Of a DNA stretch of 64,000 nucleotides, positions 22,066 to 48,316 are shown in pieces (position 1 is the first letter of the stretch; each line of letters opens with the position of its first letter). The stretch lies in the NCBI GenBank assembly GCA_045612485.1, contig JAZKZE010000030.1:2386-66385 (forward strand). Reading direction: 5' to 3'. Source of the DNA: Victivallales bacterium. Lineage in GTDB: Bacteria; Verrucomicrobiota; Lentisphaeria; Victivallales; UBA1829. A program made the position numbers and the translations under genes. The notes beneath the pieces were generated by a model, which did no database searches, was not told the origin of the DNA, and was given only the letters and a program-made list of their open reading frames with translations.

Positions 22066-23160
22066 ATGAAAACAGTTCTTCTTCTGATATGTTTATTTGT
22101 TGCTTTTCTGCTTGCAGGAAAGGAAAAAGATATCGTTGCCTACTCAAAAAATTGTGCCGTTACTCCGGAAGGGGCATTATTGGAGGAGGTATGGCAGGTG
22201 ATCCCGGATGAAGAGTTTTTACAGACGGAAGAAGGAAAGAAGCCTTCCCGGAAAACGGTTATCAAAGTTGTTTATGAAAGGGAATATCTCTGTTTCGGTT
22301 TGAAAATGGTTACCGGACGTCCGGCAATGAGTGAAGCCGTAAAAAACAGCAGAGTCGATTCTGTTTCGGTGAAACTGTTCTCCCTTTCCGGTGCAAAAAC
22401 AGCAGAATTTTTCGTGACGCCCTTGTGGGTGGAAAGCAGTTGGAAACAGAATAAGATCCACCGTTCCGGAGTGAAACGGGGGGGCGATTATTATTCTGCG
22501 GAAGTACGGATCCCGCTTTTTGCGGAAGAGGAATTTTTTGAGAAGGGGCAGAAATATCAGCTGGAATTCGTACGGAAAAGTCTTTCTTCCTCCGGTAAAC
22601 GGGAGACCGCCTTTTTCAGGGGATCTCTTCTGACGGGAAATCTTGCTTATACAGACAATGCGCCGCGTACCAATAAAAAAGTCTGGCGCAACGGGGAAAT
22701 GAATACCTTTTTCAAACGTCCCAATATCCGCTGGAATTCCAACTGGGATCTGGGTGAGGGGGATTATCTTCAGCAGGGTTGGAACCTGAACAAGGCAAAG
22801 GGCAGGGGAAATTTTGAAGTTTTTGCCCATGAAGACAAGGCGGATGATTATTATGTGGTGCTGCGTAACGGGGATTTTTATCAGATGTATAAAGGCACGG
22901 AAAAGAAGATGAGCTATACCTTTCAGGCAAAAGGCAAAGGGGTGCTGAAAGTCCGTTTCCTGCGTTTTTCCTTCCGGAATCAGGCGTTGCGTTTTCTGGG
23001 AGTGCGTTCCGAACGGGAGATCCGTCTTGATTCAGATAAATGGCAGACTTACACGGGAACGGTTGAAAAGTCCACCGGTACAGAATATCTTGCACTGGAT
23101 TTTTCAACGGAAAACAGTGAGATCATGCTGGATGAGGCCTATATGCGGGGAATAAAATAA
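22066..23160 (+). CDS. Exported protein: degenerate CBM9-like domain plus NGxF beta-sandwich; homologous to the C-terminal part of 28705..31635
   Basis: Signal peptide MKTVLLLICLFVAFLLA. YSAEVRIP, WRNG, GWNLN, LRNGDFYQ, YTFQAKGKG and WQTYTGT match motifs in the DUF4838-like protein. Confidence 0.75.
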   Translation: MKTVLLLICLFVAFLLAGKEKDIVAYSKNCAVTPEGALLEEVWQVIPDEEFLQTEEGKKPSRKTVIKVVYEREYLCFGLKMVTGRPAMSEAVKNSRVDSVSVKLFSLSGAKTAEFFVTPLWVESSWKQNKIHRSGVKRGGDYYSAEVRIPLFAEEEFFEKGQKYQLEFVRKSLSSSGKRETAFFRGSLLTGNLAYTDNAPRTNKKVWRNGEMNTFFKRPNIRWNSNWDLGEGDYLQQGWNLNKAKGRGNFEVFAHEDKADDYYVVLRNGDFYQMYKGTEKKMSYTFQAKGKGVLKVRFLRFSFRNQALRFLGVRSEREIRLDSDKWQTYTGTVEKSTGTEYLALDFSTENSEIMLDEAYMRGIK

Positions 23161-24889: not shown

Positions 24890-26779
24890 TTATACGATTT
24901 TATCCGCAACAGCTTTTCTGATGTCGGGAAGATCCATTTCTTTCAGGATCCCGGGTACCATGAAGGAGAGAGGGAATCTGGAGAAGGGATCGGAGAGAAG
25001 AGCCTCGTAAGAAGGGGTTGCTTCATCCACAAGTTTGAGTCTGTGGATCTTGTCGGAAAGAAGAGCTGCCATTAAAGCTGTAACACAGCCCAATCCATGA
25101 GCTTCCACCGTAAGAACCATATCGGAAGGAGCATTTTCCGCAATAAGGGCGACTGCACTTAAAAGGTCAAAGACTCTTTTGCCGAGTTCCGGAGCGTTCC
25201 ACATGATGCCCAGAGAAGCATAATGGTAATCAAACTGGTAGGCACTGAAAAAATCTCTCTTCCAGGGTTGATCCGTTCCGGAAGGCATCATTTCTCCGAT
25301 ACCCCGGGTATCCAGAGCGTAAAGAAGTTCCCCGTTTTCAGGATCCCGTTCCCCCATTTCCTCTTTGCTGTCAAGGGAGGGGATGACAAGTGTGATATTT
25401 TTCTTTGTGTCATCCGGATTATATACGATATTGGGCGTATAGGAGGCAAGAATACTCATAATGGAATCTTTTTCCGTTTCCAGACCGAATCTGTTGCGGA
25501 AAAGATCTTTTTTGATCGCCCGCCACCTTAATTTCCTGTAATAGGGAGCCTTTTGCGGAAGAGTGATCTTCAGGAGAGAAAGAAGAGTGTTTTTCAATTC
25601 TTCTTTTGAACGGGCTTTTCTTTCCCCGGCAAATTTTTCCGCCATATCCTTTATGATTTCCCAGATATATTTATTGCCGGCAAGATTTCTCAAATCGCCG
25701 TCTTTGACTGCGTATGTGCTTTCCGGTGCGGGAAGAGTAAAACCGGGTTCCGGTGCATTTTCCTTTCCTGCAATATGTTTTGTCAGGAATCCATACATGG
25801 CTTCCCGGTTGGCTTTGGAGAATCCGTGTTCATCCGGACCGATGAAATATTGGGTATCACGATCGGAAAGAAGGGAATTGATCTTTTTGACCTCCGCACA
25901 GGTTTCCACCACGCCCCTGGGGTCGAAAAAGTCCTTTTTCTGTCCCATGATCAGGATATGACGGGGTGCCTGGGCAAGGAGGAAATCTCCCATTTCCAGA
26001 CCGTATTCAAAAGCGTGGGGCGGCATCTGTTCGATGTCGGCGGGCAGTTCATTTTCTATATTGTGTTTCCAGCTTGTCACATAACAGCTGGGGGCAACTG
26101 CCACAGGACGGGGGTCGGCTGCTGCCACCCATGTGGTAAGGGTTCCGCCTCCGGAGTTTCCTGTAACACACAGGCGGGAGGAGTCGATCTCGCTTCTTGT
26201 TTCCAGATAATCCAGCCCTCTTACGCCGTCCCATGTACGCCATGCTCCCAGCCATTCGCCGCACAGGGAGAGATTTTTACCCATAAGGTTGTGGTTGCCG
26301 CAAAGTCCGAATTTTGTGGGGGTATCTCTGTATTGCTGACGTTCTCCCTGTTCCACAGGGTCAACGGCAAGGACGGCAAAACCTTTTTTCACCAGACCAA
26401 CGCACGCGGAACGGTAAGTATCGCTTGCCTTGCCCTCTTCCGCATGACCGCAGAGGAAAAGTACACCGGGGACTTTTCCGGAAACGCCGGAAGGCAGATA
26501 GAGATTTGCTGTGACGGGATAGGAGGGACGGCTGTAATAGATGATATTTTCCACAGAATATCCGTCAAAGGTATTTTTTCCGGTAACGGAAGCAAGAAGC
26601 GGAGTACGTTCCGGGAAAGCAAAGATTTTTTCTATTTTGCTTTTTACCTCTTTTACATAGGAAGCTGCCTGTTCTTTTGTTGTGATGGCATCCAGTTTCT
26701 TTCTGCGTTCTTCAAAGTTTTTTCTTGCCAATGCCACATAATACTCATTGACATTGTTTCCGAAAAGGGAATTTGTCAT
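24890..26779 (-). CDS. Alpha/beta hydrolase, acetylxylan esterase-like (duplicated fold)
   Basis: VTANLYLP, CGH, QGER, nucleophile GNSGGG, DFF, HGF. Degenerate second half (DTRGIGE). Confidence 0.8.
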   Translation of the reverse strand: MTNSLFGNNVNEYYVALARKNFEERRKKLDAITTKEQAASYVKEVKSKIEKIFAFPERTPLLASVTGKNTFDGYSVENIIYYSRPSYPVTANLYLPSGVSGKVPGVLFLCGHAEEGKASDTYRSACVGLVKKGFAVLAVDPVEQGERQQYRDTPTKFGLCGNHNLMGKNLSLCGEWLGAWRTWDGVRGLDYLETRSEIDSSRLCVTGNSGGGTLTTWVAAADPRPVAVAPSCYVTSWKHNIENELPADIEQMPPHAFEYGLEMGDFLLAQAPRHILIMGQKKDFFDPRGVVETCAEVKKINSLLSDRDTQYFIGPDEHGFSKANREAMYGFLTKHIAGKENAPEPGFTLPAPESTYAVKDGDLRNLAGNKYIWEIIKDMAEKFAGERKARSKEELKNTLLSLLKITLPQKAPYYRKLRWRAIKKDLFRNRFGLETEKDSIMSILASYTPNIVYNPDDTKKNITLVIPSLDSKEEMGERDPENGELLYALDTRGIGEMMPSGTDQPWKRDFFSAYQFDYHYASLGIMWNAPELGKRVFDLLSAVALIAENAPSDMVLTVEAHGLGCVTALMAALLSDKIHRLKLVDEATPSYEALLSDPFSRFPLSFMVPGILKEMDLPDIRKAVADKIV

Positions 26780-26794
26780 TTTTTACCTCATTTA

Positions 26795-27664
26795 TTATGG
26801 TTGTTCTATTTGAAAAATCTCATGAGAAGTCTGTTCCGATTCCCGGAATTTCTGCGGGGAAAGACCGGTTTCATTACGGAAATATCTTGTAAAATAAACC
26901 GGATCGGAAAAACCGGATTTCACCGCAATATTTTTCACGGAAAGATCGGTGGTTTTCAGAAGTTTTGCAGCACAGGCGAGCCGCTGTCGGATAAGATAGG
27001 TGGATAAAGGTATATTGTAGGCTTTGCGGAATTCCCGGGAAAGATGCACTCTGTGTATGGAAAGAGTTTCCGCTATCTCATTTACATTCATCCTCTGATC
27101 TGTATAATGAAGATCTGCAAGAGCTTTGGCAAGGGAGGCATAATTCCTTTCCGGTTTGTCTGCCGGGGAATCTTTTCCCTTTTCCTTGGAAATGTGTGTA
27201 CTTAAAATAAGAACTTTCACCCCTTCAGCAAGGGCGGAAAGCATACTGGTATCATCCTTTTTTCTGATAAGATCATAAAGAAGGGAAAAGAGTTCCTCCG
27301 GGCAGGTTCCTGCATAATGAGGGGTTCTGGGGATATTGAATCTTTTCCAGAATTCTCCGGAAAAATTCCCTTCAAAAGCTACAAAACAATACTGTCCGCC
27401 ATTGCCGGGGGGAGCGTCAAAAATATGAGTTTCCCCGGGCATAAAGTAACACACATATCCCGGCTGCATGGTATATTTTCCTTCCGGAAATTCCACCTGG
27501 AAAACGCCATCCGTACACCACAAAACCTCCAATGAGTGCAATGTACGGGGTTTCGGCAGCAGACCGTGCCGGATAAGTCCCCTTCCGCAGGAACGTATCC
27601 GGAAAGGAAAATTTCCCGCCAGATCCGTAAAAGCAGCAAAACTCCATTCAAATTTCTGTTTCAT
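26795..27664 (-). CDS. AraC family transcriptional regulator
   Basis: N-terminal cupin-like domain. C-terminal HLSREFRK...AAKLLKTTDLSVKNIAVKSGFSDPVYFTRYFRNETGLSP. Confidence 0.93.
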   Translation of the reverse strand: MKQKFEWSFAAFTDLAGNFPFRIRSCGRGLIRHGLLPKPRTLHSLEVLWCTDGVFQVEFPEGKYTMQPGYVCYFMPGETHIFDAPPGNGGQYCFVAFEGNFSGEFWKRFNIPRTPHYAGTCPEELFSLLYDLIRKKDDTSMLSALAEGVKVLILSTHISKEKGKDSPADKPERNYASLAKALADLHYTDQRMNVNEIAETLSIHRVHLSREFRKAYNIPLSTYLIRQRLACAAKLLKTTDLSVKNIAVKSGFSDPVYFTRYFRNETGLSPQKFRESEQTSHEIFQIEQP

Positions 27665-27670
27665 ATCCGG

Positions 27671-27737
27671 AATGTATCAAAAATATTAAAAATGTTACAT
27701 TTGTCCTATTGTGAATAAGCCCTTTATGGATTAAAAT
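27671..27737 (+). promoter_or_regulatory. Putative AraC direct repeats plus promoter of the pilin-like operon
   Basis: AATGTATCA (27671) and AATGTTACA (27691), then TTGTGA (27709), 17-bp spacer, TAAAAT (27732). Confidence 0.45.
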
Positions 27738-27852
27738 ATACTGGAGAAAAATATTTTTACAAGGTAAATACGGAAAAAAGCCATGAAAATATTTTTTTGT
27801 TCCACAGGTAAAAATGAAATTTTATTACAAAAATAACAGAAAGAAGGAAGGT

Positions 27853-28659
27853 ATGAAACGGAAAAATTATTTTACCCTTATCGAACTGTTGGTGGTTATT
27901 GCGATAATCGCCATTCTTGCGGCGATGCTTCTTCCCGCATTGAACAATGCCAGAGCTATTGCCAATGCCATCAAATGTACATCCAATCAGAGACAGATCG
28001 GGTTGTCATTTGTGCTGTACGCCAACGATTTCAAGGATTGGACGATCGGAAGTTCCACATTGTATTCCAAAAATTCCGCCGGACAGACAACTGCTGAAAA
28101 ACGCAATCCCTGGCATCACTTCCTGGCAAAACCCAATCCCAGCAATGCCTATGGATCCCCCACAGAAAAGAAACTTCTTATCGGGTATCTGCCTATGATC
28201 ATCTATGCAAAACCCGGTAAAGACCTGATTTCCTGCCCTGTTGAGATGGGGGAACCCAGCGGTTCAGACAACTGTGATTATACGATCTGTGATTTCAGTC
28301 AAAACCAGGCGATTTATGACAAGTGCGGTTTCTGGAAATTAAGTTCTTTCCGCAGTAAGTATGTGGACAGTTACGGACGGGGAAAAACAATAAGCCCTTC
28401 CAACCGTGTATGGTTTGCCGACTCTCATGACTATGGGAATATCAAAGCACACATTCCCCGTCATACAAAGGACAAGGCATTTGTCATGTCTTACGCTGAC
28501 GGACATGTTGGAAAGGTGAAAGTAACGCAAATGTCCCCCCGGCTGACAAAGATAACAAATGCGGAATACATCAAAAAGTTTGGTGGTGTCATCAATGCTG
28601 TTTCCCCCTCTGAAAGGGATTTCCCCTACAGTGGGACTACCGGGGAAAGTCTCTGGTGA
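27853..28659 (+). CDS. Prepilin-type N-terminal cleavage/methylation protein (DUF1559-like, H-X9-DG-type C-terminus)
   Basis: [70 protein letters not shown] before ATG 27853. Confidence 0.92.
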
Positions 28660-28704
28660 TTTGTATAAGAATAATCCAATCGAAAATAACATAAAAGGAA
28701 CAAA

Positions 28705-31635
28705 ATGAAAAAAACATTATTTCTGCTGTTGTCCTGCCTGCTTGGCTGTATGAGCCTTGCATCCGCAGAGAAAGTCATACTTTCTGAAAAAGGAAAAACC
28801 TCATTTTCCATCGTCATCCCTGCAAATGCTTCCCCCGCCCACAAACGGGCTGCGGAAGAATTGGCAAAATATACGGCAAAGATCTCCAATGCCCCTGTGG
28901 CAAAAATCGGGACTGCTCCGGTAAAGGGCCTTCTGCCCGTTTATCTGGAAATCTCCAAAGAGAAACTTCCCATGATCGACGCCTACCGGTTGAATGTAAG
29001 CAAAAATGCTGTACGCATCTCCGGTCAGACCGCCCAGGCTCTTCTCCATGGTGTGTACCGTCTCCTTTTCAAATATGCCAATATGAGATGGCTTGTTCCC
29101 GGGGAAGATGGGGAATATTTTGTTCCCGGAACGAAAATAGCTATTCCCGTTCAGAATAAAGTGGATTCCCCCGCATTCTTCCGCAGGGGGCTGGAACTCA
29201 ACTGCGCCAATACTTCCGGGATCATGAAAGATACCTGGGACTGGATTTTGCGTAACAACTATACTCTTGGCTATTATGACGGTGCCGTATATGCCGATAA
29301 AAAATGGAAACCCGAACTGGGGATCGCTTTGAGAGAAAGAGGCAGTTATGTCCGGGAAAGTAAAATGTTCTGCGGCATACTCACCGGTACAAGGATCCGG
29401 AAAGGTGCCGGAACGGAAAAAAAGGAACTGGACAAACTTTTTGTCACCAATAAGGACTTTTTCCCCCTTGTGGAAGGAAAACGCATTTATATGAAAGGGC
29501 ATGAACAGCCCTGTACCAGCAATCCCGGCGTGATCAGAATGATGAGTGAACACGTCCTTATGCATGCCCGTACTCTTTCCGGAAAAGGACAGGCTTCTTT
29601 TGCTGTCATCAATCAGGACGGTACCACATGGTGCAAATGTCCTTCCTGCCTTGCCATCGATCCTGCAAGCGAAAAGAAAAACAACTATATGTCCACAAGA
29701 TACTGGACACTTCTCAATCACATTTTCAAAGGCGTTCTGGAAAAATATCCGGATGTGATCCCCTACGGGCTTGCCTATCAGAACTTCCAGACCGTTCCCG
29801 ACGGCGTAAAGATCGATCCCCGCATCGGTGTGGGACTTTCCTTCAACCGCCGCTGCTTCCGTCACAATCTGGATGACCCCAAATGCCCCACCAATACGGA
29901 ATTTCTCAAATATTACACCGCATGGGGAAAACTGCCCAACAAGACCTATTCCCGTGAGGAACTCCATGCCGGTGTGGGCAGTTTTATGATGCCCTCCGCC
30001 CGTCAGATGGTGCAGGGATTCAAGATCTACAATAAAGTGGGGATCGACGGGGCTTCCATCTGTACCGTTCCCCCGGATGGCACTTACCGTCCTTTCTATA
30101 CCGATGTCGTAAAACAGGGCTGGTTCTGTGAATGGCAGACCCTGTATCTTGCAGGGCTTGCTCTGTGGGATCAGAGTGCGGATACAGATAAATATCTGGA
30201 AGAAGCCAACAGTCTCTACTACGGAAAAGGCTGGAAAGGCGGTATGAAAGAATTCCGTACCCTTCTAGACAAAGCCTGCCGGGAAGATTCCGGCTGTTAC
30301 GGCTGGGGACATGGTACACCTCCCGGAAGAGTCCTTGCCAAAGCCGGTTTACTGGAAAAATTGGAAAAATGCCTTACCGATGCGGAAAAGGCCGCCAAAG
30401 ACGATGCCAGAGCATTGGCGCATATCAAACGGGAAAAATATCTTTTCAATATCTCCCTTGTAGCCGCCGCCAAGGAATTTATGAGTTCCTATAAAGAACT
30501 CAAAGGTTTTACCGCTCCCGGTAAGATCAAAATCGACGGAAAAGCGGAAGATGCCTGGAAGAAAACTGAAACCTATTCCTCCTTCCGTAAATTTGCCCCC
30601 GGCAATATCGACAAGGAAAAAAGCTCCCTTGCCAAATATCAGACCTTTGTACGGGCTATGTACGACAAGGAAAATCTCTATCTCTTCATTGAGGCGATGG
30701 AGCCCGATCCCGGTACCGTTGTGATGAAGAAAAACAAAGGGGATGCTCCCTGGGGCGATGATGCTCTGGAAATTTTCCTCACCCATCCCAACTTCAACGG
30801 CGGATATTATCACTTCGCCTTTACAAGAAAAGGCGCATTGTATCAGGCAAAGACCACTCCCGGGAGCATGACTGCCGATGCTTCCATCAAGACCGATATA
30901 GAGATCGCCTCCCTTTCCATGCCGGACAGATGGTGTGCGGAAGTGCGTATCCCTGCCGGAAAGATCGGTCAGACCTTTGATGACGGTCACACCTGGCAGA
31001 TCAATATTGCCAGAGGCCGTAAAAATACCAAAGGAAATGAATTGAGCAGTCTTACCGGAAGTTTCCACGGTGCATATCTGCCCCTTTCTCTTGCCGGAAA
31101 AATGGTAAGCAGCAAGACCGGTAACAAGGATACCAGACTGTGGCAGAACGGTAATTTCAGTGACATATTTGTCAAACCCAATGACAAATGGGCGAAAAAC
31201 TGGAATCTGGGAAAGAAAAATTCTCTTGCCAGAGGCTGGGCATTGAATGTGGCATGGAAGGGAGGATCCACTTTCGAGATCCTCACCCACCCCGGCACCA
31301 ATGATAACTATGTACATCTGAAAAACGGGAATTTCTATCAGCGTCATGCCGGAAAGGATAAAGCACTTAAATATACCTTCCGGGCAAAAGGAAATGGACT
31401 TCTCACCATTATGGTATTCCGTTACCAGCGGGCAAAATGGCCCAAGCATATTGCTACAGAAAGTATTTTGAAGCTGAAACTTGACGGAAAAAGCCAGTGG
31501 AAGACTTATACCGGTACTTATGTAAAGAAAAATGCCGATGAACTCATCTCCTTTGTATTCTGGGCAGATAAGACCGGGGATTTCTATATAGATGATGTCT
31601 ATTGCTACGGTGCGGATGTGCCTGCAAAAAAATAA
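28705..31635 (+). CDS. Exported DUF4838-like protein with CBM9-like and NGxF beta-sandwich C-terminal domains
   Basis: Signal peptide, AAEELAKY, HGVYRLL, QPCTSNP, WCKCPSC, LAY, then KIDGK...W, YDKENLY, WCAEVRIP, WQNGNF. Confidence 0.8.
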   Translation: MKKTLFLLLSCLLGCMSLASAEKVILSEKGKTSFSIVIPANASPAHKRAAEELAKYTAKISNAPVAKIGTAPVKGLLPVYLEISKEKLPMIDAYRLNVSKNAVRISGQTAQALLHGVYRLLFKYANMRWLVPGEDGEYFVPGTKIAIPVQNKVDSPAFFRRGLELNCANTSGIMKDTWDWILRNNYTLGYYDGAVYADKKWKPELGIALRERGSYVRESKMFCGILTGTRIRKGAGTEKKELDKLFVTNKDFFPLVEGKRIYMKGHEQPCTSNPGVIRMMSEHVLMHARTLSGKGQASFAVINQDGTTWCKCPSCLAIDPASEKKNNYMSTRYWTLLNHIFKGVLEKYPDVIPYGLAYQNFQTVPDGVKIDPRIGVGLSFNRRCFRHNLDDPKCPTNTEFLKYYTAWGKLPNKTYSREELHAGVGSFMMPSARQMVQGFKIYNKVGIDGASICTVPPDGTYRPFYTDVVKQGWFCEWQTLYLAGLALWDQSADTDKYLEEANSLYYGKGWKGGMKEFRTLLDKACREDSGCYGWGHGTPPGRVLAKAGLLEKLEKCLTDAEKAAKDDARALAHIKREKYLFNISLVAAAKEFMSSYKELKGFTAPGKIKIDGKAEDAWKKTETYSSFRKFAPGNIDKEKSSLAKYQTFVRAMYDKENLYLFIEAMEPDPGTVVMKKNKGDAPWGDDALEIFLTHPNFNGGYYHFAFTRKGALYQAKTTPGSMTADASIKTDIEIASLSMPDRWCAEVRIPAGKIGQTFDDGHTWQINIARGRKNTKGNELSSLTGSFHGAYLPLSLAGKMVSSKTGNKDTRLWQNGNFSDIFVKPNDKWAKNWNLGKKNSLARGWALNVAWKGGSTFEILTHPGTNDNYVHLKNGNFYQRHAGKDKALKYTFRAKGNGLLTIMVFRYQRAKWPKHIATESILKLKLDGKSQWKTYTGTYVKKNADELISFVFWADKTGDFYIDDVYCYGADVPAKK

Positions 31636-31656
31636 CCGTTCCGGGGAAGAAAAAGA

Positions 31657-33021
31657 ATGGAAGAAAAAGCTGTGAAATTTCTTCATCTGGACTTGAAGGG
31701 GATCGTTCCCGGTATTGACCGTTTCCGGAAGTTTCTTCAATATTTTGCTTCTCTTGGTTTTGAGGGGATCGTGCTGGAATGTGACTGCCGCATCCCCTGG
31801 AAATGTTGGGAAGGTGCCGGGGAATACCGTTTCACAAAGGAAGAGATCGTTTCGCTTGCCGGCTGTGCGGAAAGTCTGGGAATGGAGATCATTCCCCTTA
31901 TCCAGGTACAGGGCCACATGGAATGGGTGCTGAAAGAGGAAAAGTACGCTTTTCTGCGGGAAAACGGTTTTTACAATGATCTGTGTCCCTCCCATCCGGA
32001 GGCAAAAAAAATCCTTACGGAATGGATCGATGAAACTGTTTCTCTCTTTCCCCGTGCGAAAAGGATCCATCTGGGCGGGGATGAGGCGTGGCATCTGGGA
32101 TGCTGTCCGGTATGTCAGGAAAAGATCTCTTCCGATCCCCTGAAACGGGGAAAGATGGGGCTTTTTGCCGACCACGCTTCCTTTCTTGCAAACTATGCAA
32201 AAGAAAAATATTCTTTGCAGGTGATGCTGTGGGATGATATGTTCTGCAAAGTGGAAGGGGAACTTCTTGACCATCTTCTGGCAGAATTTCCTTCTGATAC
32301 CATTTTTGTCCATTGGAAATATCTGGGGGATGTGAATGCGGAACTTTCCAAAATCTCTTCCGGGAACCGCAGGGTATGGGGGGCTTCCGCCATACGCTGC
32401 ACCTGGGCGAACCATTTTATCCACGCCCTGAATTTTGTGGGTGAGAGGATCGAAAATATAAAGAACTGGGAAAATACCGGATTACCCGTCCTGCATACCA
32501 CATGGGGCCGCCCCAATGACCTCTGGAATCCTTACGGTCCATGGGAAGCATTGATCCCGGAATTCATTGCTGCCGGAAAAGGTGTGGCGGTATGGGAAAA
32601 ACATCCCTGGAAGGCTTTTACTGTGCAGATGGATGAGGCAGTAAGGCGCGGGGACTATAAAATGCTGGAAGAGTGCCTTGCCGAAGGGGAAAAACTTCCC
32701 TGTGCCGATGAATGGGAAGAGGCGGGAAAAGCCTTTTTCCTTCTGGGACTGCGTTATGAGATCCTGCGTCTGGAGGCAAAAGGGCATCTGGAACTTGTAC
32801 GGATACGGGAGGTATTAAGTAGATATGGAAAGGGAGATCCTGCCGGTTGTGAAAAAGATTATGCCGCCTGCCGGGAAAAAGTGCGTCTGAAAATGGAAAA
32901 ATGGGAAAAAGATCTTGAAGAATTCTGGAAAAAGAATACTTTAAGCGATTTTGAAGAATACAGAGATCTGCGGAAGGCAGAATTTTTTGAAGAAGAACTT
33001 TTTGAAAGGAAAATGCAATAA
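31657..33021 (+). CDS. GH20-like beta-N-acetylhexosaminidase, no signal peptide
   Basis: HLDLKG, IIPLIQVQGH, LCPSHP, HLGGDE (catalytic DE), MLWDDM. Confidence 0.82.
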   Translation: MEEKAVKFLHLDLKGIVPGIDRFRKFLQYFASLGFEGIVLECDCRIPWKCWEGAGEYRFTKEEIVSLAGCAESLGMEIIPLIQVQGHMEWVLKEEKYAFLRENGFYNDLCPSHPEAKKILTEWIDETVSLFPRAKRIHLGGDEAWHLGCCPVCQEKISSDPLKRGKMGLFADHASFLANYAKEKYSLQVMLWDDMFCKVEGELLDHLLAEFPSDTIFVHWKYLGDVNAELSKISSGNRRVWGASAIRCTWANHFIHALNFVGERIENIKNWENTGLPVLHTTWGRPNDLWNPYGPWEALIPEFIAAGKGVAVWEKHPWKAFTVQMDEAVRRGDYKMLEECLAEGEKLPCADEWEEAGKAFFLLGLRYEILRLEAKGHLELVRIREVLSRYGKGDPAGCEKDYAACREKVRLKMEKWEKDLEEFWKKNTLSDFEEYRDLRKAEFFEEELFERKMQ

Positions 33022-34670
33022 TGGATCATTGGGGAAAAGTGCAGAACCTTGACGGGATATGGGATTTTGCTTTTACGGAAAAAGGCCTGGAGGAGCTGGA
33101 TGTAAAAAATATCCATTTTGATACGGCGTCCTCTGTACCGGGATGTTTTGATACTCTGCCGGAATATTATAATTTCCGGGGAAGCGGTGTTTACAGAAGA
33201 ACGGTTTTCTGCGGCGGACTTATCCGGCTTTCCTTCGGCGGAGTGACTCTGCGGGGTGCTGTTTACTTTGATGGTGTTCTCATCGGTAATCTGGAACACC
33301 CTCTCACTCCGGAAGAGATCGTTTTTGATGCCGGTGAGAGAAAGGAACATACTCTTGTTATTGCTGTGGAAAATATCTTCCATGAGGAAAATTCCTCTCT
33401 CTTTCACCAGTATTATGATTACTATGGATTTGGCGGTATCTGCCGGGAAGTTACTCTGGAGGAACTTCCTTCCTGCTATATGGAAAGAATTTCTGTTATC
33501 CCTCTTTCTTATGAAACAGGGGAAGTAAAAATTTCTGTATATTTCGGCGGAACTGTTCCTGCAAATGGGGAGATTTCCATACAGTTTGATACGGAGGAAA
33601 AGGAAAGCTCTTATTCTTTCAGCGGGGAGAAATTTGAACTTGTCAAGAAGGTTCCTTCCCATCAAGTCTGGTCTCCAAAATCTCCTGCCATGCATAAGGT
33701 GAACGTTGCCGTTTCCGGACAGAAAAAGGAGATTTCTTTCGGTATCCGTATTCTTTCCTGGAATGACCGGAAACTTTGTGTCAACGGGGAGGAACTCAAA
33801 CTTATCGGTTACAACCGGCATGACAGTCATCCCCAGTTCGGTTATGCTGTGCCCCTTACACTTTGTGCTTCCGACCTGCATCAGATCCAGAGTCAGGGGT
33901 GTAATTTCATCCGCGGATGCCACTATCCGCAAAGTGAGAAATTCCTTGAACTTTGCGACCGTATGGGGATACTTGTATGGGATGAAACTCTTGCATGGGG
34001 CAATAAGGAAGAACATCTTGCGGATCCTGTTTTCCGTAAGAAACAGAATGAATGTGCCCGCCTTATGGTGCGTGCAAGCATCAATCACCCCTCTGTCATC
34101 ATGTGGGGATTCCTCAACGAATGTGCCTCCGATACGGTTGCCGGGTATGAATTGATCTCCCAACTGCGGCAGACTATTCTTTCTGAAGATACTTCCCGCC
34201 CCATAACCTTTGCCTCCAGCAGAGGAACAAAGGAACTGTGTCTTGATCTGGTGGATATCGTTTCCTATAACTCTTACCCCGGGTGGTATCTGGGGATCAA
34301 TGAGGCAAGACCTTTCCATCTTGTTGCAAGTACATTTGATGAACTTCTCGCTTTTGCGGAAGAAAAGGGAAGCGGTAATAAGCCTTTCATCATAAGTGAA
34401 GTGGGAGCTGCCGCCATCATCGGGGAACGCAACGGGGAAAGATGGTCGGAAGATTACCAGTCGCAGCTTCTTGCGGAAGTATTGCGTTATACTCTGGAAA
34501 ATGACCGTGTTAACGGGCTTGCCATCTGGCAGTATTGCAACTCCCGTACCTATGCAGCCACAAGCGGGATCATTGTGAGACCCCATGCCATGAATAATAA
34601 GGGGGTGGTGGATGAATACCGCCGTCCGAAACTGGCTTATTACACCATTAAAAATATGCTGAAAAAATAA
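33021..34670 (+). CDS. GH2, beta-glucuronidase-like, no signal peptide
   Basis: LDGIWDF, DYYGFGGICR, GYNRHD, RGCHYPQ, NHPSVIMWGFLNE, ISEVG, NNKG (N-K motif), RPK. TAATG coupling to GH20. Confidence 0.87.
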   Translation: MDHWGKVQNLDGIWDFAFTEKGLEELDVKNIHFDTASSVPGCFDTLPEYYNFRGSGVYRRTVFCGGLIRLSFGGVTLRGAVYFDGVLIGNLEHPLTPEEIVFDAGERKEHTLVIAVENIFHEENSSLFHQYYDYYGFGGICREVTLEELPSCYMERISVIPLSYETGEVKISVYFGGTVPANGEISIQFDTEEKESSYSFSGEKFELVKKVPSHQVWSPKSPAMHKVNVAVSGQKKEISFGIRILSWNDRKLCVNGEELKLIGYNRHDSHPQFGYAVPLTLCASDLHQIQSQGCNFIRGCHYPQSEKFLELCDRMGILVWDETLAWGNKEEHLADPVFRKKQNECARLMVRASINHPSVIMWGFLNECASDTVAGYELISQLRQTILSEDTSRPITFASSRGTKELCLDLVDIVSYNSYPGWYLGINEARPFHLVASTFDELLAFAEEKGSGNKPFIISEVGAAAIIGERNGERWSEDYQSQLLAEVLRYTLENDRVNGLAIWQYCNSRTYAATSGIIVRPHAMNNKGVVDEYRRPKLAYYTIKNMLKK

Positions 34671-34687
34671 AAATTGCCGTTATACAC

Positions 34688-34737
34688 AAAACAGTCTGAA
34701 CCGGGAGAAGATACTCTCTGTTCAGACTGTTTTTTTT
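34688..34737. terminator. Bidirectional intrinsic terminator
   Basis: Perfect 14-bp stem AAAACAGTCTGAAC / GTTCAGACTGTTTT with a T run. Confidence 0.85.
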
Positions 34738-43196: not shown

Positions 43197-44405
43197 TCAT
43201 GTAAAAGAATTGCTCTTCTGCTTTTTTACCATGTGGATGATAAACGGGATCATCAGGAACATCAGAAAGGCTCCGGTAACATAAACACCCCGGACGCCGC
43301 AGGTCCAGACCACCGTTCCGCTTAATACCGCACTTACCAGTCCGCCAGCCTGATGGATACTGCTGCCCCAGCCAAGATACGTCCCTTTCAGTTCCGGATC
43401 TGTGGAAGAGGAAAGCCACATCATCAGAAGCGGGTGGATACATCCGCTTGCCATAGCCGAAAGAAAACGGATGGAGACAAGCATATAGATATTTCCGGAA
43501 AAGGGGAGAATGAAGGAGAGCAATACTGTTATTGCCAGAGCGGAAAGCAGGAGTTTGAAATGGCGGATCTTATTGCTTATCCAGCCGAAAAGGCAACCGG
43601 AAAGCAAGCCGCCCGATGCGGCAATTATGCTTGTAGTCCCCGTCCAGAATGCCGCATTTTTCTGTCCGTTGACCACTTCAACAAGCATGGCGGCAAATGG
43701 CTGGGTGATCCGGTTTGCCATTCCCAGAAGGAGAAAAAGGACCATAATGCCGGCGACTGCCGGGGAGGCAAGATCCCGTATGGAAAAGAGTTTTTTTCTT
43801 TTTTCCTTTTTTACTTTTGTTTCCTGTCTGACAAAGTTATCCTTTACAAAAAACTGTACCAGAAGGCCGCCTGCGATATAAAGGGCTCCGCAGCTTAAAA
43901 ATGCCGCTTTATACCCGAATAATTCCACAATGATCCCGCCGCAGAAATAGCCGATCATGTGGCCGCTTGTGGTAGCAGTGGAAAATACTCCCAGAACATA
44001 GCCGTGTTTTTCTGCCGGTGCCGTTGCCAGAAGCAGAGTCCTCGCCGGATTGGCAGTTCCGGAAAAGAAGGAACAGAGAAAACGGATGCCGATCAGAGTA
44101 TATATATCCGGGGCAAAACACAGCAGGGGGTAAAGCAGAGCCGCTCCGAAATTAGCTCTTAAAAGCATGAGTTTTCTGCCGAATTTATCTGCCAGCATTC
44201 CCCAGAGTGCTGTGGCAATACATAAACTTGTCAAACCGGCAAAGGCGAATGCGGAAACATATACTCCGCGTACACTTTCCTCCACTTTCAATACTTCCCG
44301 CATGAAAAGAGGAATGAAAGGCATACAAAGTCCGAACCCTGCTGTGGCAAGAAGCTGGGAAAGCCAGACGAAAAAGAGATTTTGTTTCCAGTTTATATTG
44401 ATCAT
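43197..44405 (-). CDS. MFS transporter (MdtG/DHA1-like)
   Basis: WKQNL, PFIPLF, WGMLADKFGRKLMLLRA, about 12 TM. Start placed at ATG 44405 after GAGGA. Confidence 0.88.
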   Translation of the reverse strand: MININWKQNLFFVWLSQLLATAGFGLCMPFIPLFMREVLKVEESVRGVYVSAFAFAGLTSLCIATALWGMLADKFGRKLMLLRANFGAALLYPLLCFAPDIYTLIGIRFLCSFFSGTANPARTLLLATAPAEKHGYVLGVFSTATTSGHMIGYFCGGIIVELFGYKAAFLSCGALYIAGGLLVQFFVKDNFVRQETKVKKEKRKKLFSIRDLASPAVAGIMVLFLLLGMANRITQPFAAMLVEVVNGQKNAAFWTGTTSIIAASGGLLSGCLFGWISNKIRHFKLLLSALAITVLLSFILPFSGNIYMLVSIRFLSAMASGCIHPLLMMWLSSSTDPELKGTYLGWGSSIHQAGGLVSAVLSGTVVWTCGVRGVYVTGAFLMFLMIPFIIHMVKKQKSNSFT

Positions 44406-44611
44406 ATATATGTTTCCTCTGCATATTCCGGTAATATAATCCTTTATTTGTGTTTTACAAGCTGAACAATATAAGATTTCTGTCAGGCGGAAAATATATA
44501 TATTTCTGCTTGCTTTTAACAGACAGAAGTATATATTACTTTTCAATATATATTTTTTTTCTTTTTCCGGGGAAAACGGAAAATCAACTTTTATAAAACA
44601 GAAGGTGAAAA

Positions 44612-46279
44612 ATGGTGAATTTGAATGGAATTTGGGATTTTGCTTTTTTCAGGGATAAAGCACTGGAGGAGATCGAATATGAAAAAGTTGAATTTACAGG
44701 AGTGATGAATGTTCCCGGATGTTTTGAAGAGTTTACTTCATATCACAGGGGAACAGCTGTTTACCACCGTACTTTTGAACTGGAAAAAGAGGAACTTCGT
44801 CCGGTTCTGCGTGTAGAGGGCGCAGGGCAGAGAGTCAGATTTTTTGTTGACGGGAAAATGGTGGAGTTTCTTCCGCTTCCCTACTCTGTCCTGGAAAGTC
44901 CTCTGGAAAAACTTGATGCCGGTAAACATGAGATCATTGCCCTTGTTGACAACCGTTTCGATCCGGAAAAATTGAAACTTGTCCGGCCGGATTTTGATTA
45001 TTATTCCTACGGCGGATTTTTTGACGGAATTTCCCTTTTGTTCCGTACTTCCCCCTGTTCCCTTGACCGGGTGAAGATCACAACAGAAGATTTTGAAAAA
45101 GGTATTGTGGGACTTGAGTTCATCTTTTCAGGAGTTGTTCCGGAAACTGCGGAAGTGCAATATGCTTTTGATGATGAAGAAGAGTTCCGTAATGTTACTG
45201 TGAATCGTGGCGAAAAACTGCTCTGCCATGTTCCCTGCTGCAAATTGTGGAGTCCGGAAACACCCTTTCTGCATACTCTGAAAGTAAAATTCAATGGAAA
45301 CACCCTCCGGGAAACTTTCGGGGTCCGGACTGTTGCTGTTAAAGGTAAAAAACTTCTGCTGAACGGTAAAGAACTTTTCCTCAAAGGTTTCAACCGCCAC
45401 AACTCCTGTGCTGTTTCCGGGGCTGCTGTACCGGCGGAGATCATGCTTCTTGATTTGAAACATCTGAAAGATATGGGGTGTAACTTCGTCCGGGGGGCGC
45501 ACTACAAACAGAGCCGCACTTTCCTTGAATTGTGTGACCGTATGGGGATTCTTGTCTGGGAGGAAAGTTACGGCTGGCAGTACAGACCGGAGGAGTTTCA
45601 GGATCCTTCCTTCTGTTTTCTTGTAAAAGAGCAGACACAAATGATGATACAGGAGGATTTCAATCACCCCTGTATTATTTTCTGGGCGTTTATGAATGAG
45701 TTTTACTCCGGAACTTTTGAAGGCAGGAAAATGGCGGAAGAACTTGCTTCATTGATCCGCAGAGAAGATCCTTCCAGACTTGTTACATTTGCCTGCAGCC
45801 ATATCAAAGCGGATATCTGCTGTGACCTTTGTGATGTGATCGCATTCAATACTTATCCCGGCTGGAATGAAGTTTCCATGGATGAACCTGTGAAACTCCT
45901 TCAGGAAAATCTGGAGGATATTACCGCATTTTTCCGTGAAAAATATCCGGAAAAACCCCTTATGGTGGGGGAAATGGGGCTTTGTGCCGAATACGGCAGA
46001 AGAGATCCTTACGGGGCGCAATGGACAGAAGAGTTCCAGGCAGAATTTTATTCTGCTGTTGCCCGCTGGGTGCTTGCATCCCCGGAATATTGCGGACTTA
46101 CCTTCTGGCAGTTGAATGATGCAAAAAGTTATTGCAGAAAAGGTGCTCCCGTGCGGGTAAAACCCTTCGGAATGAATCTTGCCGGGGTCTATGATGTTTA
46201 CCGCCGTCCGAAACTTGCTGCTGCCGCAGTGGGGGAACTCTTTAAAGGTACAGGCGATGGTTTCAGACTTGAAGAGTGA
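44612..46279 (+). CDS. GH2, beta-glucuronidase-like; paralogue of 33021..34670
   Basis: LNGIWDF, VPGCF, DYYSYGG, GFNRH, RGAHY, NHPCIIFWAFMNE, VGEMG, RRPK. Confidence 0.87.
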   Translation: MVNLNGIWDFAFFRDKALEEIEYEKVEFTGVMNVPGCFEEFTSYHRGTAVYHRTFELEKEELRPVLRVEGAGQRVRFFVDGKMVEFLPLPYSVLESPLEKLDAGKHEIIALVDNRFDPEKLKLVRPDFDYYSYGGFFDGISLLFRTSPCSLDRVKITTEDFEKGIVGLEFIFSGVVPETAEVQYAFDDEEEFRNVTVNRGEKLLCHVPCCKLWSPETPFLHTLKVKFNGNTLRETFGVRTVAVKGKKLLLNGKELFLKGFNRHNSCAVSGAAVPAEIMLLDLKHLKDMGCNFVRGAHYKQSRTFLELCDRMGILVWEESYGWQYRPEEFQDPSFCFLVKEQTQMMIQEDFNHPCIIFWAFMNEFYSGTFEGRKMAEELASLIRREDPSRLVTFACSHIKADICCDLCDVIAFNTYPGWNEVSMDEPVKLLQENLEDITAFFREKYPEKPLMVGEMGLCAEYGRRDPYGAQWTEEFQAEFYSAVARWVLASPEYCGLTFWQLNDAKSYCRKGAPVRVKPFGMNLAGVYDVYRRPKLAAAAVGELFKGTGDGFRLEE

Positions 46280-46303
46280 GACAAAAAAATGAGAGGAAAT
46301 TTT

Positions 46304-48316
46304 ATGGAGAAAAAATTGGATATAAGGTTCCGGCAGGTACATCTGGATTTCCATACTTCGCCTTTGATCCCCGGTATAGGGACAGAATTTGATAAAAAAC
46401 AATGGCAGGAAAACTTGAAAATGGCTCATGTGGATTCCATTACCTGTTTTTCCTGCTGTCATCACGGCTGGAGTTATCACCCTACGGAAGTTGGGGCAAT
46501 GCATCCGGAACTTTCTTTTGATCTCTTGCGGGAACAGATGGATGCTTCCCATGAGATCGGAATAAAAGTTCCCATCTATCTTACCGCCGGGATCAATAAC
46601 CGTATTGCGGAACTTAATCCCGGCTGGCGGGAGATCAACTTTGAAGGACAGCTGGTGGGCTGGGCACGTTCCCCACTCAAGGCGGGATTCAAAACTCTCT
46701 GTTTCAATACTCCTTATCTGGATTTTCTTGCCCGTCTGACAGAGGAGGCCGCCAAACTTTTTCCGGATGCCGACGGAATGTTTTTCGATATCATTTCCCA
46801 GAATCAGTGCTGTTGTCCCTGCTGTATGCGGGACATGAGAAAAATGGGATTTGATCCGGCTAAGGAAGAGGACAGAAAACATTTTTCCGATACTGTCCTG
46901 CGTAAATATTTCAGAAAAATCACCGATGCGGCAAGAAGTGTGAACAGTGATCTGAATGTATTCCACAACTTTTCATGGCTGGGGGATCCGGGCAATGAGG
47001 ATGTATATAACTATGTAAGTCACATTGAATCCGAATCCCTGCCCACAACCGGTTTTACCGGATATGATGCTTTCCCCATGTGTGCCGCGTTCAGCCGGGG
47101 GAACAAGGAAAAAGCCCTTGTGGGGATGACAGGAAAATTCCATACCCACTGGGGAGAATTCGGTGGCTTTAAATCAGCGGATGCTCTGCGTTATGAGTGT
47201 GCCGCCATGATCGCCCAGGGGGCAGCTTGCAGTATCGGCGATCAGCTGCATCCCTGCGGTAAACTGGATGAAAGCACTTACAAACTTATCGGCAAAGCCT
47301 ACAGGGAAGTGGAGGAAAAAGAACCCTGGTGCAGAAATGCTCAAAGCAGTGCGTTCTTTGCTGTTCTCTCTTCCCGCTGGTTCAAAAGAACTCTTGTGCC
47401 GGACAGAAATACTGATCTGGGAATTGCCAGGATTTTGCGGGAAGGACATATACCTTTTGATATGCTGCGGGATATTGATGCGGAAAAAATCTTCCGTTAC
47501 AAAGTATTGATCCTTGCTGATGAAATCCGTCTGGATAAAAAATGGCGGGCTAATATCCGGGAATTTCTTGCAAATGGCGGCAAGATCATCCTTTCCGGAG
47601 AGTCTCTCCTGAAAAAAGAGGAGGATATTCCCGCCTTTGATATTGGAATATGTGAAGGGGAAAGTACGCAGTACCCCAACTACATTCAGGCGGAAGAAAT
47701 GTTTGCTCCGCAGGACATCCATACCCCCTTTGTCATGTATATGCCCTCCATGAATTTCAGAAAGACAAAAGGTGAAAGTCTGGGGAAAATTTTTGAACCT
47801 TATTTTGTCCGTTCCTATGAACATTTCTGTTCCCATGCCCATACTCCCTTTAAAACAGTTTCTTCCTGCTTTGACGCAGGGACGGTGACGGAAAATATCC
47901 TTTATTTTGCCCATAAAATTTTCCGCAATTATGCGTTGTACGGCAATGTGATTTTGAAAGATTTTATTCTGAAATGTATTTATGCCTTTGCAGGAGATGA
48001 GGCGGGAATAAGAACAAATCTTCCTTCAACGGCAAGAGTTACTTTGATGCAGCAGAAAGAGGAAAAAAGGTATATAGCTCACGCTCTTTATGCCAATATC
48101 ATCCCCAGGGGAACTCCGGAAGGACATTTTACACTTCTTATTGATGAGATCATTCCTTTGTATCACGTGGAATTTTCCTTTACACTGCCGGAAAAGATAA
48201 AGAAAGTAACTCTTGAACCGGAAGGAAAAGAGATCCCCTTTACGGAAAAAGAGGGAAAGATCCTTCTGATTCTGGAAAAGCTGGATTGTCACGCCATGAT
48301 GGTATTACATTACTGA
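46304..48316 (+). CDS. GH151-like alpha-L-fucosidase with beta-galactosidase trimerisation-like domain
   Basis: FRQVHLDFHTS, CHHGWSY, DGMFFDI, ESLPT, GMTGKFHTHWGEFGG, IGDQLHP. Confidence 0.8.
   Translation: MEKKLDIRFRQVHLDFHTSPLIPGIGTEFDKKQWQENLKMAHVDSITCFSCCHHGWSYHPTEVGAMHPELSFDLLREQMDASHEIGIKVPIYLTAGINNRIAELNPGWREINFEGQLVGWARSPLKAGFKTLCFNTPYLDFLARLTEEAAKLFPDADGMFFDIISQNQCCCPCCMRDMRKMGFDPAKEEDRKHFSDTVLRKYFRKITDAARSVNSDLNVFHNFSWLGDPGNEDVYNYVSHIESESLPTTGFTGYDAFPMCAAFSRGNKEKALVGMTGKFHTHWGEFGGFKSADALRYECAAMIAQGAACSIGDQLHPCGKLDESTYKLIGKAYREVEEKEPWCRNAQSSAFFAVLSSRWFKRTLVPDRNTDLGIARILREGHIPFDMLRDIDAEKIFRYKVLILADEIRLDKKWRANIREFLANGGKIILSGESLLKKEEDIPAFDIGICEGESTQYPNYIQAEEMFAPQDIHTPFVMYMPSMNFRKTKGESLGKIFEPYFVRSYEHFCSHAHTPFKTVSSCFDAGTVTENILYFAHKIFRNYALYGNVILKDFILKCIYAFAGDEAGIRTNLPSTARVTLMQQKEEKRYIAHALYANIIPRGTPEGHFTLLIDEIIPLYHVEFSFTLPEKIKKVTLEPEGKEIPFTEKEGKILLILEKLDCHAMMVLHY

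Follow-up and report, generated by a model that had tools for sequence, protein, structure and literature searches.

Orphan pilin genes precede exported glycosidase-like proteins in regulator-led cassettes of a gut Lentisphaeria genome: a tentative case for an interchangeable filament subunit

Organization of the pilin cassette

The window analyzed in this study is a stretch of 64,000 nucleotides from a Victivallales bacterium (contig JAZKZE010000030.1, here C30), a gut Lentisphaeria genome of 3.45 Mb that is 94% complete. It carries a cassette of six genes, in which an esterase gene and an AraC-family regulator gene on the minus strand face genes for a type IV pilin-like protein, a DUF4838-CBM9 protein, a GH20 enzyme and a GH2 enzyme on the plus strand, followed by a terminator. 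This layout had been read from the letters alone in an earlier note and was confirmed by gene calls, Pfam matches and folding. Cassettes of this regulator-pilin-exported enzyme type occur dozens of times in the genome; the pilin, for which we tentatively propose a role in export or surface tethering, is the subject of this report.

The orphan pilin gene (27853..28659, plus strand) encodes 268 aa from its likely start. The first ATG is found at 27814; the likely start at 27853 lies 3' of the ribosome-binding site AAGGAAGGT, and two homologues begin there. After 45 nt follows the gene for the Sec-exported DUF4838 protein of 976 aa (28705..31635, plus strand). A further 21 nt downstream lies the GH20 gene (31657..33021, plus strand), encoding a predicted beta-N-acetylhexosaminidase (PDB 8QK1, E 8e-30; also a Pfam match) with an intact H-x-G-G-D-E motif (HLGGDE). 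It overlaps by 1 nt with the GH2 gene (33021..34670, plus strand), whose product has the beta-galacturonidase 6NCW as its best match in the structural database (E 4e-98). This GH2 protein has the catalytic NE and SEVG motifs and an NNKG sequence of the form NxKG, which we take to be a uronidase motif, and is annotated here as a beta-uronidase of the galacturonidase/glucuronidase type. The intrinsic terminator (34688..34737, plus strand) consists of a hairpin (34688-34733, -26.8 kcal/mol) that leads into a stretch of eight T residues ending at 34737. It was not listed by a simple terminator scan and was revealed by folding; the opposite strand folds with -23.9 kcal/mol and the terminator is thus probably bidirectional.

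The AraC-family regulator (26795..27664, minus strand; Pfam HTH_18 and AraC_binding) is divergent from the pilin operon and adjoins the orthologous pilin gene in three out of four loci of relatives where the contig extends far enough. In the divergent promoter region (27665..27852), the 60 nt proximal to the AraC gene are partly conserved in the aligned relatives G001, G003 and G040. The alpha/beta-hydrolase esterase of 629 aa (24890..26779, minus strand; Pfam Abhydrolase_7/AXE1) has a G-N-S-G-G-G nucleophile motif at 207. Its nearest PDB sequences, a DUF3826 protein and CE15/CE7-type esterases, match weakly (E 9e-8 to 5e-3), and it is likely a cytoplasmic enzyme that removes acetyl or methyl esters.

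The maximal 8-residue Kyte-Doolittle mean near the N-terminus is 2.94 for the DUF4838 protein and 1.34, 0.80 and 0.55 for GH20, GH2 and the esterase, respectively. The latter three have no signal-peptide-like start, in agreement with the earlier note, and no Tat motif, and are thus assigned to the cytoplasm. Likewise, Pfam found no transporter, TonB receptor or pilus assembly gene among the six genes, as the note had said. The identities of the DUF4838 protein, GH20, GH2 uronidase and esterase together indicate that the likely substrate is an esterified glycan with N-acetylhexosamine (HexNAc) and uronic acid.

The pilin: fold and conservation

The pilin matches PF07963 with 31.2 bits (cut-off 21.2) and TIGR02532 with 21.5 (cut-off 16.3) and has a class III signal. 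The mature protein starts with FTLIELL and consists of a long N-terminal helix containing E5, P22, C36 and Y50, followed by a variable head with C122, H198 and D210-G-H. The note had linked it to the DUF1559/H-X9-DG proteins. Its nearest ESM Atlas clusters, mostly from Lentisphaerota, are of the DUF1559/N_methyl type (0.97), with PF07596 in 36-71% of their members. The window pilin itself matches neither PF07596 (Pfam, E 0.01) nor TIGR04294 (E 0.05), and its motif is H198-X11-D210-G-H instead of H-X9-DG. Its score for GspG (TIGR01710) is 26.1 against a cut-off of 88.85, and the true GspG of the genome is encoded on contig C115.

An AlphaFold (AF2) model, built from a 49-row alignment with a predicted local distance difference test score (pLDDT) of 82, shows a helix at residues 3-53 and a loop-rich head. 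The 20 best VIA-align rows for this model are all pilins or pseudopilins, with middling scores: PilA4 (Z 5.8, root-mean-square deviation 3.3, 119 residues aligned), EpsG (Z 4.5) and PulG (Z 3.9). At a threshold of E 0.001, Foldseek matched nothing. A lectin or solute-binding fold appears in no row of either fold search, which does not exclude such a fold, and no solute-binding protein family was matched in Pfam.

The genome encodes 89 orphan pilins of this kind, of which 84 were aligned. P22, a Cys near position 36, Y50 and H198 are present in all 84, and F1, E5 and P22 are near-invariant among the orphan pilins. Median identity is 65% in the helix and 17% in the head. Because the helix is so much better conserved than the head, it suggests that these pilins assemble on a platform for type IV filaments. 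The heads are rich in Trp and Tyr (9.9% vs 4.7%), and the head is about twice the size of GspG. The invariant His198 may form a metal site with Asp184, Asp210 and His212.

The canonical Gly at position -1 of the prepilin cleavage site occurs in only two of the 84 orphan pilins. We considered and rejected this as a sign of non-processing, since the core GspG, GspH, GspI and GspJ of the same genome also have no Gly at this position; its absence from these four and from 82 of the 84 orphan pilins suggests a prepilin peptidase of relaxed specificity.

Elsewhere in the genome, a dispersed in-frame insertion with a period of 156-231 nt and small hairpins is found at the 5' end of pilin genes. It duplicates the stretch coding for FTLIELLV (14-21 of 24 nt alike), so that the mature pilin is rebuilt behind the insertion. 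blastn located it at 14 places, most of them at pilin starts, including C47:1818, C84:42287, C109:40466, C113:14651, C165:5320, C178:205, C180:153 and C106:188; at C113 the second motif leads into a non-pilin frame. The four loci that were scanned gave no Rfam match.

The exported DUF4838 protein

The DUF4838 protein comprises a GH20b/GH67N-like N-terminal domain, a DUF4838 barrel (PF16126; 66.2 bits, cut-off 26.6), a CBM9-like domain (CBM9_1) and a C-terminal CBM4-like domain, identified with Pfam, a PDB sequence profile and an alignment of paralogues. These domains are those of the exported DUF4838/CBM protein described previously; what that description missed is the catalytic nature of DUF4838, which is the catalytic domain of the GH163 (BT1035) and GH185 (Sp_0475) hexosaminidases (PMC10570127). 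The exported protein is therefore probably an enzyme, a GH163/GH185-like hexosaminidase judging from its domains.

Asp305 is kept in 70 of the 75 near-full-length DUF4838 paralogues and is followed by W-C-x-C-x-x-C; with this Asp retained, the idea that the paralogues are dead binding proteins is unsupported. Anchoring as lipoproteins was rejected as well, a lipobox pattern being found in only 2 out of 83. Across the whole genome, 67 of the 83 DUF4838 genes have a signal-peptide-like start vs 0/10 GH20 and 0/9 GH2 genes: exo-glycosidases are inside and DUF4838 proteins outside.

Two possible metal sites were noted in the DUF4838 proteins, formed by Cys270 with C-x-C-x-x-C (310-315) and by Cys384/His387/Cys394, respectively. 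In relative G001 (C70), the orthologous gene is frameshifted near residues 230-275, which may be genuine or an assembly error. A 364-aa protein with a signal peptide, encoded at 22066-23160 of the window (plus strand), has only the CBM9-like and CBM4-like modules found at the end of the DUF4838 protein and no catalytic domain. The genome further encodes about ten CBM4-like proteins of 164-208 aa that stand alone.

Gene order across the genome

We called 2644 genes with a hexamer model of our own and searched them with profiles built from the window proteins. This gave 94 pilin matches, of which five in core loci or GspG-like were set aside to leave the 89 orphan pilins, and about 80 DUF4838 genes. 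DUF4838 is the next same-strand gene for 30 out of 89 pilins (null mean 0.99; at most six in 2000 draws), and a DUF4838 gene lies directly before a pilin in only seven cases. An AraC or LacI/GntR regulator gene is located directly upstream of 27 of the 89 (null 2.6), bearing out the predicted association with regulators, and a pilin comes immediately after 12 out of 21 LacI/GntR-like genes. We should note that the null draws were made over the whole genome and leave the clustering of glycan genes uncorrected, so the contrast within one class of genes weighs more: among genes of at least 600 aa, a pilin lies directly upstream of 45/156 with a signal-peptide-like start vs 4/247 without (Fisher p 1.6e-16). 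The arrangement is far beyond chance.

The predicted association with carbohydrate-active enzymes thus holds for the exported DUF4838 proteins. It fails for the cytoplasmic ones, a pilin being directly upstream of none of the 10 GH20, 9 GH2 and 13 esterase genes. Among 39 downstream genes other than DUF4838, 20 were picked by size or signal peptide; 14 of these matched GH123, GH42-like, beta-helix, LamG or CBM families, one matched ComEC and five matched nothing. The family of the partner thus varies while its type, exported and enzyme-like, is constant, both in this genome and in the relatives described below. The idea that the pilin comes first in its operon stands in part: when a gap of at least 140 nt counts as well, 48/82 pilins head a unit vs 30.9 expected, while the strict test, which accepts a divergent upstream gene only, shows no enrichment (22/82 vs 17.9).

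For the 30 pilin-DUF4838 pairs, the similarities of the two proteins correlate (rho 0.19; 20 out of 5000 permutations as high), and the partner of the nearest pilin ranks in the top three for ten pairs, with 3.1 expected.

Related genomes of the order

We compared 31 genomes of the order; match counts are not copy numbers and are to be read as lower bounds, and the genomes, being related, are not independent. All 14 genomes with at least 20 DUF4838 matches have at least 60 N_methyl matches, none of the ten pilin-poor genomes exceeds three DUF4838 matches, and seven genomes are pilin-rich yet DUF4838-poor. In four of these seven, we examined 20 stretches around top-scoring pilins. Including one further pilin, 17 of the 22 non-core pilins whose next gene was readable precede a gene with a signal-peptide-like start, two of the 17 being membrane-type, and 12 of the 24 pilins in these stretches have a regulator directly upstream. 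Several partners, in G004, G013 and G020, are GH5, GH42-like, GH2 and CBM9 proteins; two GH5 partners in G020 keep the NEP and GEF motifs and two other GH5 proteins did not match the NEP pattern.

G001 and G003 have kept the window cassette together as one block, and so has G040 from another genus, where the identities of the orthologues are 44% (AraC), 50% (pilin), 56% (DUF4838) and 34% (GH20). Orthologues of the DUF4838 gene come from Lentisphaeria of the ruminant gut and from one Lentisphaerae bin of another genus. The sequencing runs that best match the genome are gut metagenomes, with at most 43% of its words. Public RNA runs contain only 6-14% of the words, consist of contigs and extend over intergenic DNA too, and hence say nothing on expression.

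A TonB receptor is found in only one of the 31 genomes. In eight pilin-poor genomes with 4-13 GH2 matches, the TonB receptor is missing and SBP_bac_1 matches number only 1-4. The lack of the receptor is therefore an order-wide trait that is not tied to the pilin expansion, and in these relatives uptake works without a pilin repertoire.

Assembly machines and transporters

The genome encodes a type II secretion system (T2SS) operon on C115 (GspD, E, F, G, H, I, J and K), a MUL2-like type IV pilus (T4P) set on C165 (an Amuc_1101-like, an Amuc_1099-like and two Amuc_1098-like proteins), PilB, a Tad locus, four PilT-like ATPase genes, one prepilin peptidase (PilD) and 11 secretin matches. Assembly genes that could serve the pilins are thus present elsewhere, as anticipated, although there is no single core machine; the T2SS, the MUL2-like T4P and the Tad system are all candidates for pilin assembly. 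Contigs C56, C122 and C176 each carry two divergent secretin-like genes in tandem, without assembly genes next to them. On C92, a fourth secretin gene lies ahead of RND adaptor and ABC exporter-like genes.

The TonB receptor family PF00593 has no match in this 94% complete genome, nor have OprB and Alginate_exp. Carriers are represented by 21 MFS, 1 SSF, 13 ABC permease, 5 SBP_bac_1 and 4 ExbB/TolQ matches. Conventional transporters, which had been named as the alternative route of uptake, are thus available with few sugar-type ABC parts; the pilin loci are not enriched in them, only 1/89 pilins having a carrier within two genes (null 3.2). In the window, the next gene past GH2 is a convergent Na+/glutamate symporter gene. 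An MFS transporter gene (43197-44405, minus strand) is divergent from 44612-48316 (plus strand), where another cytoplasmic GH2, a paralogue of the first, and a GHL6 protein are encoded. The region 43197-48316, which lies 9 kb from the pilin cassette, is an inner-membrane uptake locus of the conventional kind.

Relation to known systems

The nearest precedent for the regulator-pilin-exported enzyme rule is found in Verruconatronum alginivorum (PMC13274419), a cultured Verrucomicrobiota strain and member of another phylum. A pulG-like pseudopilin with 67 homologues (pgaptmp_000050) is located there in an alginate-induced cluster, and the authors suggest lyase export by the T2SS. The pilin of 251 aa is encoded first in a run of four genes on one strand, and the three behind it code for proteins with signal peptides (Table S3 of that paper). 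It makes up 0.513% of the proteome on alginate vs 0 on sucrose, its three neighbors reaching 0.168, 0.021 and 0.097, and the core PulG is co-induced (0.222 on alginate vs 0.006). These data agree with the prediction that such pilins would be substrate-induced in a cultured relative. Another 251-aa pilin is constitutive (0.9-1.8%) and a DUF1559 pilin was detected on sucrose only (0.033). Among the first 137 genes, the gene after the pilin encodes a signal-peptide protein or lipoprotein for three out of four orphan pilins, such genes being common there. Of the 17 DUF4838 rows of that genome, only one comes immediately after a pilin. The pseudopilin thus resembles the window pilin in being one of many paralogues, in a polysaccharide operon, placed first before signal-peptide proteins; it is also substrate-induced, as proposed for the window pilin. 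It differs in that its host has TonB receptors (nine TonB-dependent rows, and an induced SSF transporter adjoining the pilin) and in that the authors give the paralogues no specific role.

With the DUF1559 (PF07596, 'SBP_bac_10') and H-X9-DG (TIGR04294) proteins, the window pilin shares the class III signal, a size of about 250 aa, a His...Asp-Gly-His near the C-terminus and the occurrence in tens of paralogues. DUF1559 is among the largest families of Planctomycetes, whose members have been termed solute-binding proteins (PMC4807772). The window pilin scores with neither model and has H-X11-DG; the gene-order rule was measured here, while the literature examined, as far as it was accessible, gives neither a function nor an order rule for these families. 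GspG and PulG share the pilin fold and the N-terminal helix. GspG, however, is a single-copy gene in an operon, whereas the family described here consists of 89 dispersed, larger and hypervariable paralogues. The T2SS exports folded glycanases after Sec transport.

The SusC/SusD loci of Bacteroidota resemble the cassette in that a regulator of their own is combined with a single exported endo-type enzyme, several exo-glycosidases inside the cell and an esterase, and in that a genome has many such loci in parallel. The window locus differs in having no TonB receptor or SusD, a pilin as the recurring marker, and cytoplasmic GH20 and GH2. Class III signal proteins serving sugar capture are known from the Sulfolobus bindosome (PMC3047682) and Akkermansia MUL2 (PMC13174399). 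The bindosome subunits are ABC solute-binding proteins, and the window locus has no partner ABC transporter; MUL2 is one conserved locus, and neither system is described as having one pilin per glycan operon. Like GH163 and GH185, the exported protein has a DUF4838 domain with a conserved Asp; unlike them, it belongs to a set of about 80 paralogues, most of them exported and many with CBM9 and CBM4-like tails, and the window copy has no conserved His. Minor pilins of Streptococcus sanguinis, with a class III signal, reportedly bind glycans.

Elsewhere, pili help a planctomycete to attach to biopolymers (cited in PMC11131199) and the T2SS is up-regulated on fucoidan (PMC11685898). The laminarin transcriptome of Victivallales strain WC36 contains no pilin terms in its text or five supplements. 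We found no statement of the regulator-pilin-exported enzyme rule in the open literature, including the accessible parts of PMC11131199, PMC11685898, PMC13526803 and PMC5615132; subscription papers lay mostly outside this search.

Proposed role of the pilin and alternative explanations

Since the link between pilin and exported enzyme is tight whatever the enzyme family, and since the helix is near-invariant, we favor, at somewhat less than even confidence, the reading that the pilin is induced by the substrate, forms an interchangeable subunit of a common type IV filament, and exports or tethers to the surface the neighboring predicted glycosidase. AraC would sense a breakdown product and switch on both arms of the locus. 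The pilin would be cut by the single PilD and built into the filament, a T2SS pseudopilus or T4 pilus encoded elsewhere, via its near-constant helix, as its fold and the invariant F1, E5 and P22 suggest. Gene order and partial co-inheritance suggest that the variable head engages the Sec-exported DUF4838 enzyme, a putative binding. Judging from its family, this enzyme would cut the esterified HexNAc/uronic-acid glycan outside the cytoplasm. The oligomers presumably enter by general MFS or ABC carriers encoded elsewhere and may be finished in the cytoplasm by GH20, GH2 and the esterase, which have no signal peptides and whose activities are predicted.

Several observations weigh against this proposal. 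Gene order cannot separate binding of the enzyme from binding of the same glycan as the enzyme, and the Trp/Tyr-rich heads and the abundance in Verruconatronum fit glycan capture or adhesion as well as tethering. In that proteome, taken from one replicate per condition, the pilin is about 25-fold above the adjacent lyase, an excess over the need of a 1:1 adaptor (PMC13274419). Co-inheritance is weak, one pair of pilins being 0.74 similar while their enzymes are 0.31 similar, and in a quick pilin tree the partner label shows only slight clustering (12 changes vs 15.7 when shuffled). No pilin is found directly upstream of 45/75 near-full-length DUF4838 genes, nor within three genes for 31/83; a private pilin is therefore not obligatory. 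Signal peptides were called with a rough script based on hydrophobicity, which marks 27% of all genes, and 16 out of 69 first downstream genes have no signal-peptide-like start. No shared targeting domain was found: the C-terminal CBM4-like domain, considered as a pilin-targeting tag, was rejected because it occurs in 19/45 pilin-led proteins and 11/30 others. Finally, a His about 85 residues before Asp305, present in 61/75 paralogues, is absent from the window copy and from its three inspected orthologues; judging from their spacing, Asp305 and this His may correspond to D309 and H227 of Sp_0475.

The earlier note had placed the pilin in the position of SusD or a solute-binding protein. In its fuller form, this explanation holds that the head binds the target glycan, which a retractile pilus then draws, as polymer or oligomer, up to a secretin or through it, with the exported enzymes in the periplasm or at the pore. 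We regard it as rather improbable, although a good deal speaks for it: the absence of a TonB receptor here and from 30 of the 31 genomes, no OprB or Alginate_exp match, four PilT-like ATPase genes and 11 secretin matches, transporter-poor pilin loci, hypervariable Trp/Tyr-rich heads, high abundance on substrate in Verruconatronum (PMC13274419), and precedents in the bindosome (PMC3047682) and the Akkermansiaceae MUL2 (PMC13174399). It is weakened by the tight partner being an exported glycosidase-like protein and by the eight pilin-poor, GH2-bearing relatives, which are equally without TonB receptors and have few SBP_bac_1 matches. Verruconatronum has TonB-dependent proteins and an induced SSF transporter beside its pilin (PMC13274419), and the window pilin model matched pilins only, with no lectin or solute-binding fold, although this is not an exclusion. 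The pilin also leaves the inner-membrane step to the cytoplasmic GH20 and GH2 unexplained, and the genome has MFS, SSF and SBP_bac_1 proteins of its own. Because pilin-poor relatives lack the receptor as well, the SusD-like importer is the weaker reading compared with export or tethering.

Alternatively, the pilin could be a co-regulated adhesin subunit that sticks cells to glycan-bearing particles or prey, involved in neither enzyme binding nor import. The high abundance, the tandem pilins, the pilins before non-exported genes and the DUF4838 genes without pilins are all accounted for in this way, and pili aid adhesion in the planctomycete mentioned above (cited in PMC11131199). We nevertheless consider it unlikely, as by itself it does not predict the strict position directly 5' of exported and not cytoplasmic enzymes (45/156 vs 4/247). 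Even less likely is a pilin that never polymerizes and acts as an inner-membrane-anchored periplasmic chaperone or activator of the neighboring enzyme, with the prepilin helix as a mere anchor: the rare Gly at -1 and a head about twice the size of GspG would fit, but the core GspG, H, I and J also have no such Gly, making this a lineage trait, and a near-invariant F1, E5, P22 and helix (65% vs 17% in the head) would be needless.

Implications for glycan use in Lentisphaeria

Few unexplained families of the Planctomycetes-Verrucomicrobia-Chlamydiae (PVC) bacteria are as large as the DUF1559/H-X9-DG pilin-like proteins, and PVC bacteria degrade complex glycans without SusC/D by an unexplained route. 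The regulator-pilin-exported enzyme rule joins the two questions in a single model that can be tested on named pairs. It is possible, though doubtful, that Lentisphaeria run an undescribed glycan system, in which a shared retractile filament is reprogrammed by about 90 operon-specific, regulator-switched pilins that carry the matching glycosidase and capture the matching glycan, and so does the job of SusC/SusD. In this genome, the pilin marks about 45 large exported proteins as candidate glycanases, many of them without a Pfam domain. If each pilin indeed serves its own enzyme, a type II/type IV machine would acquire its substrate specificity in a novel manner.

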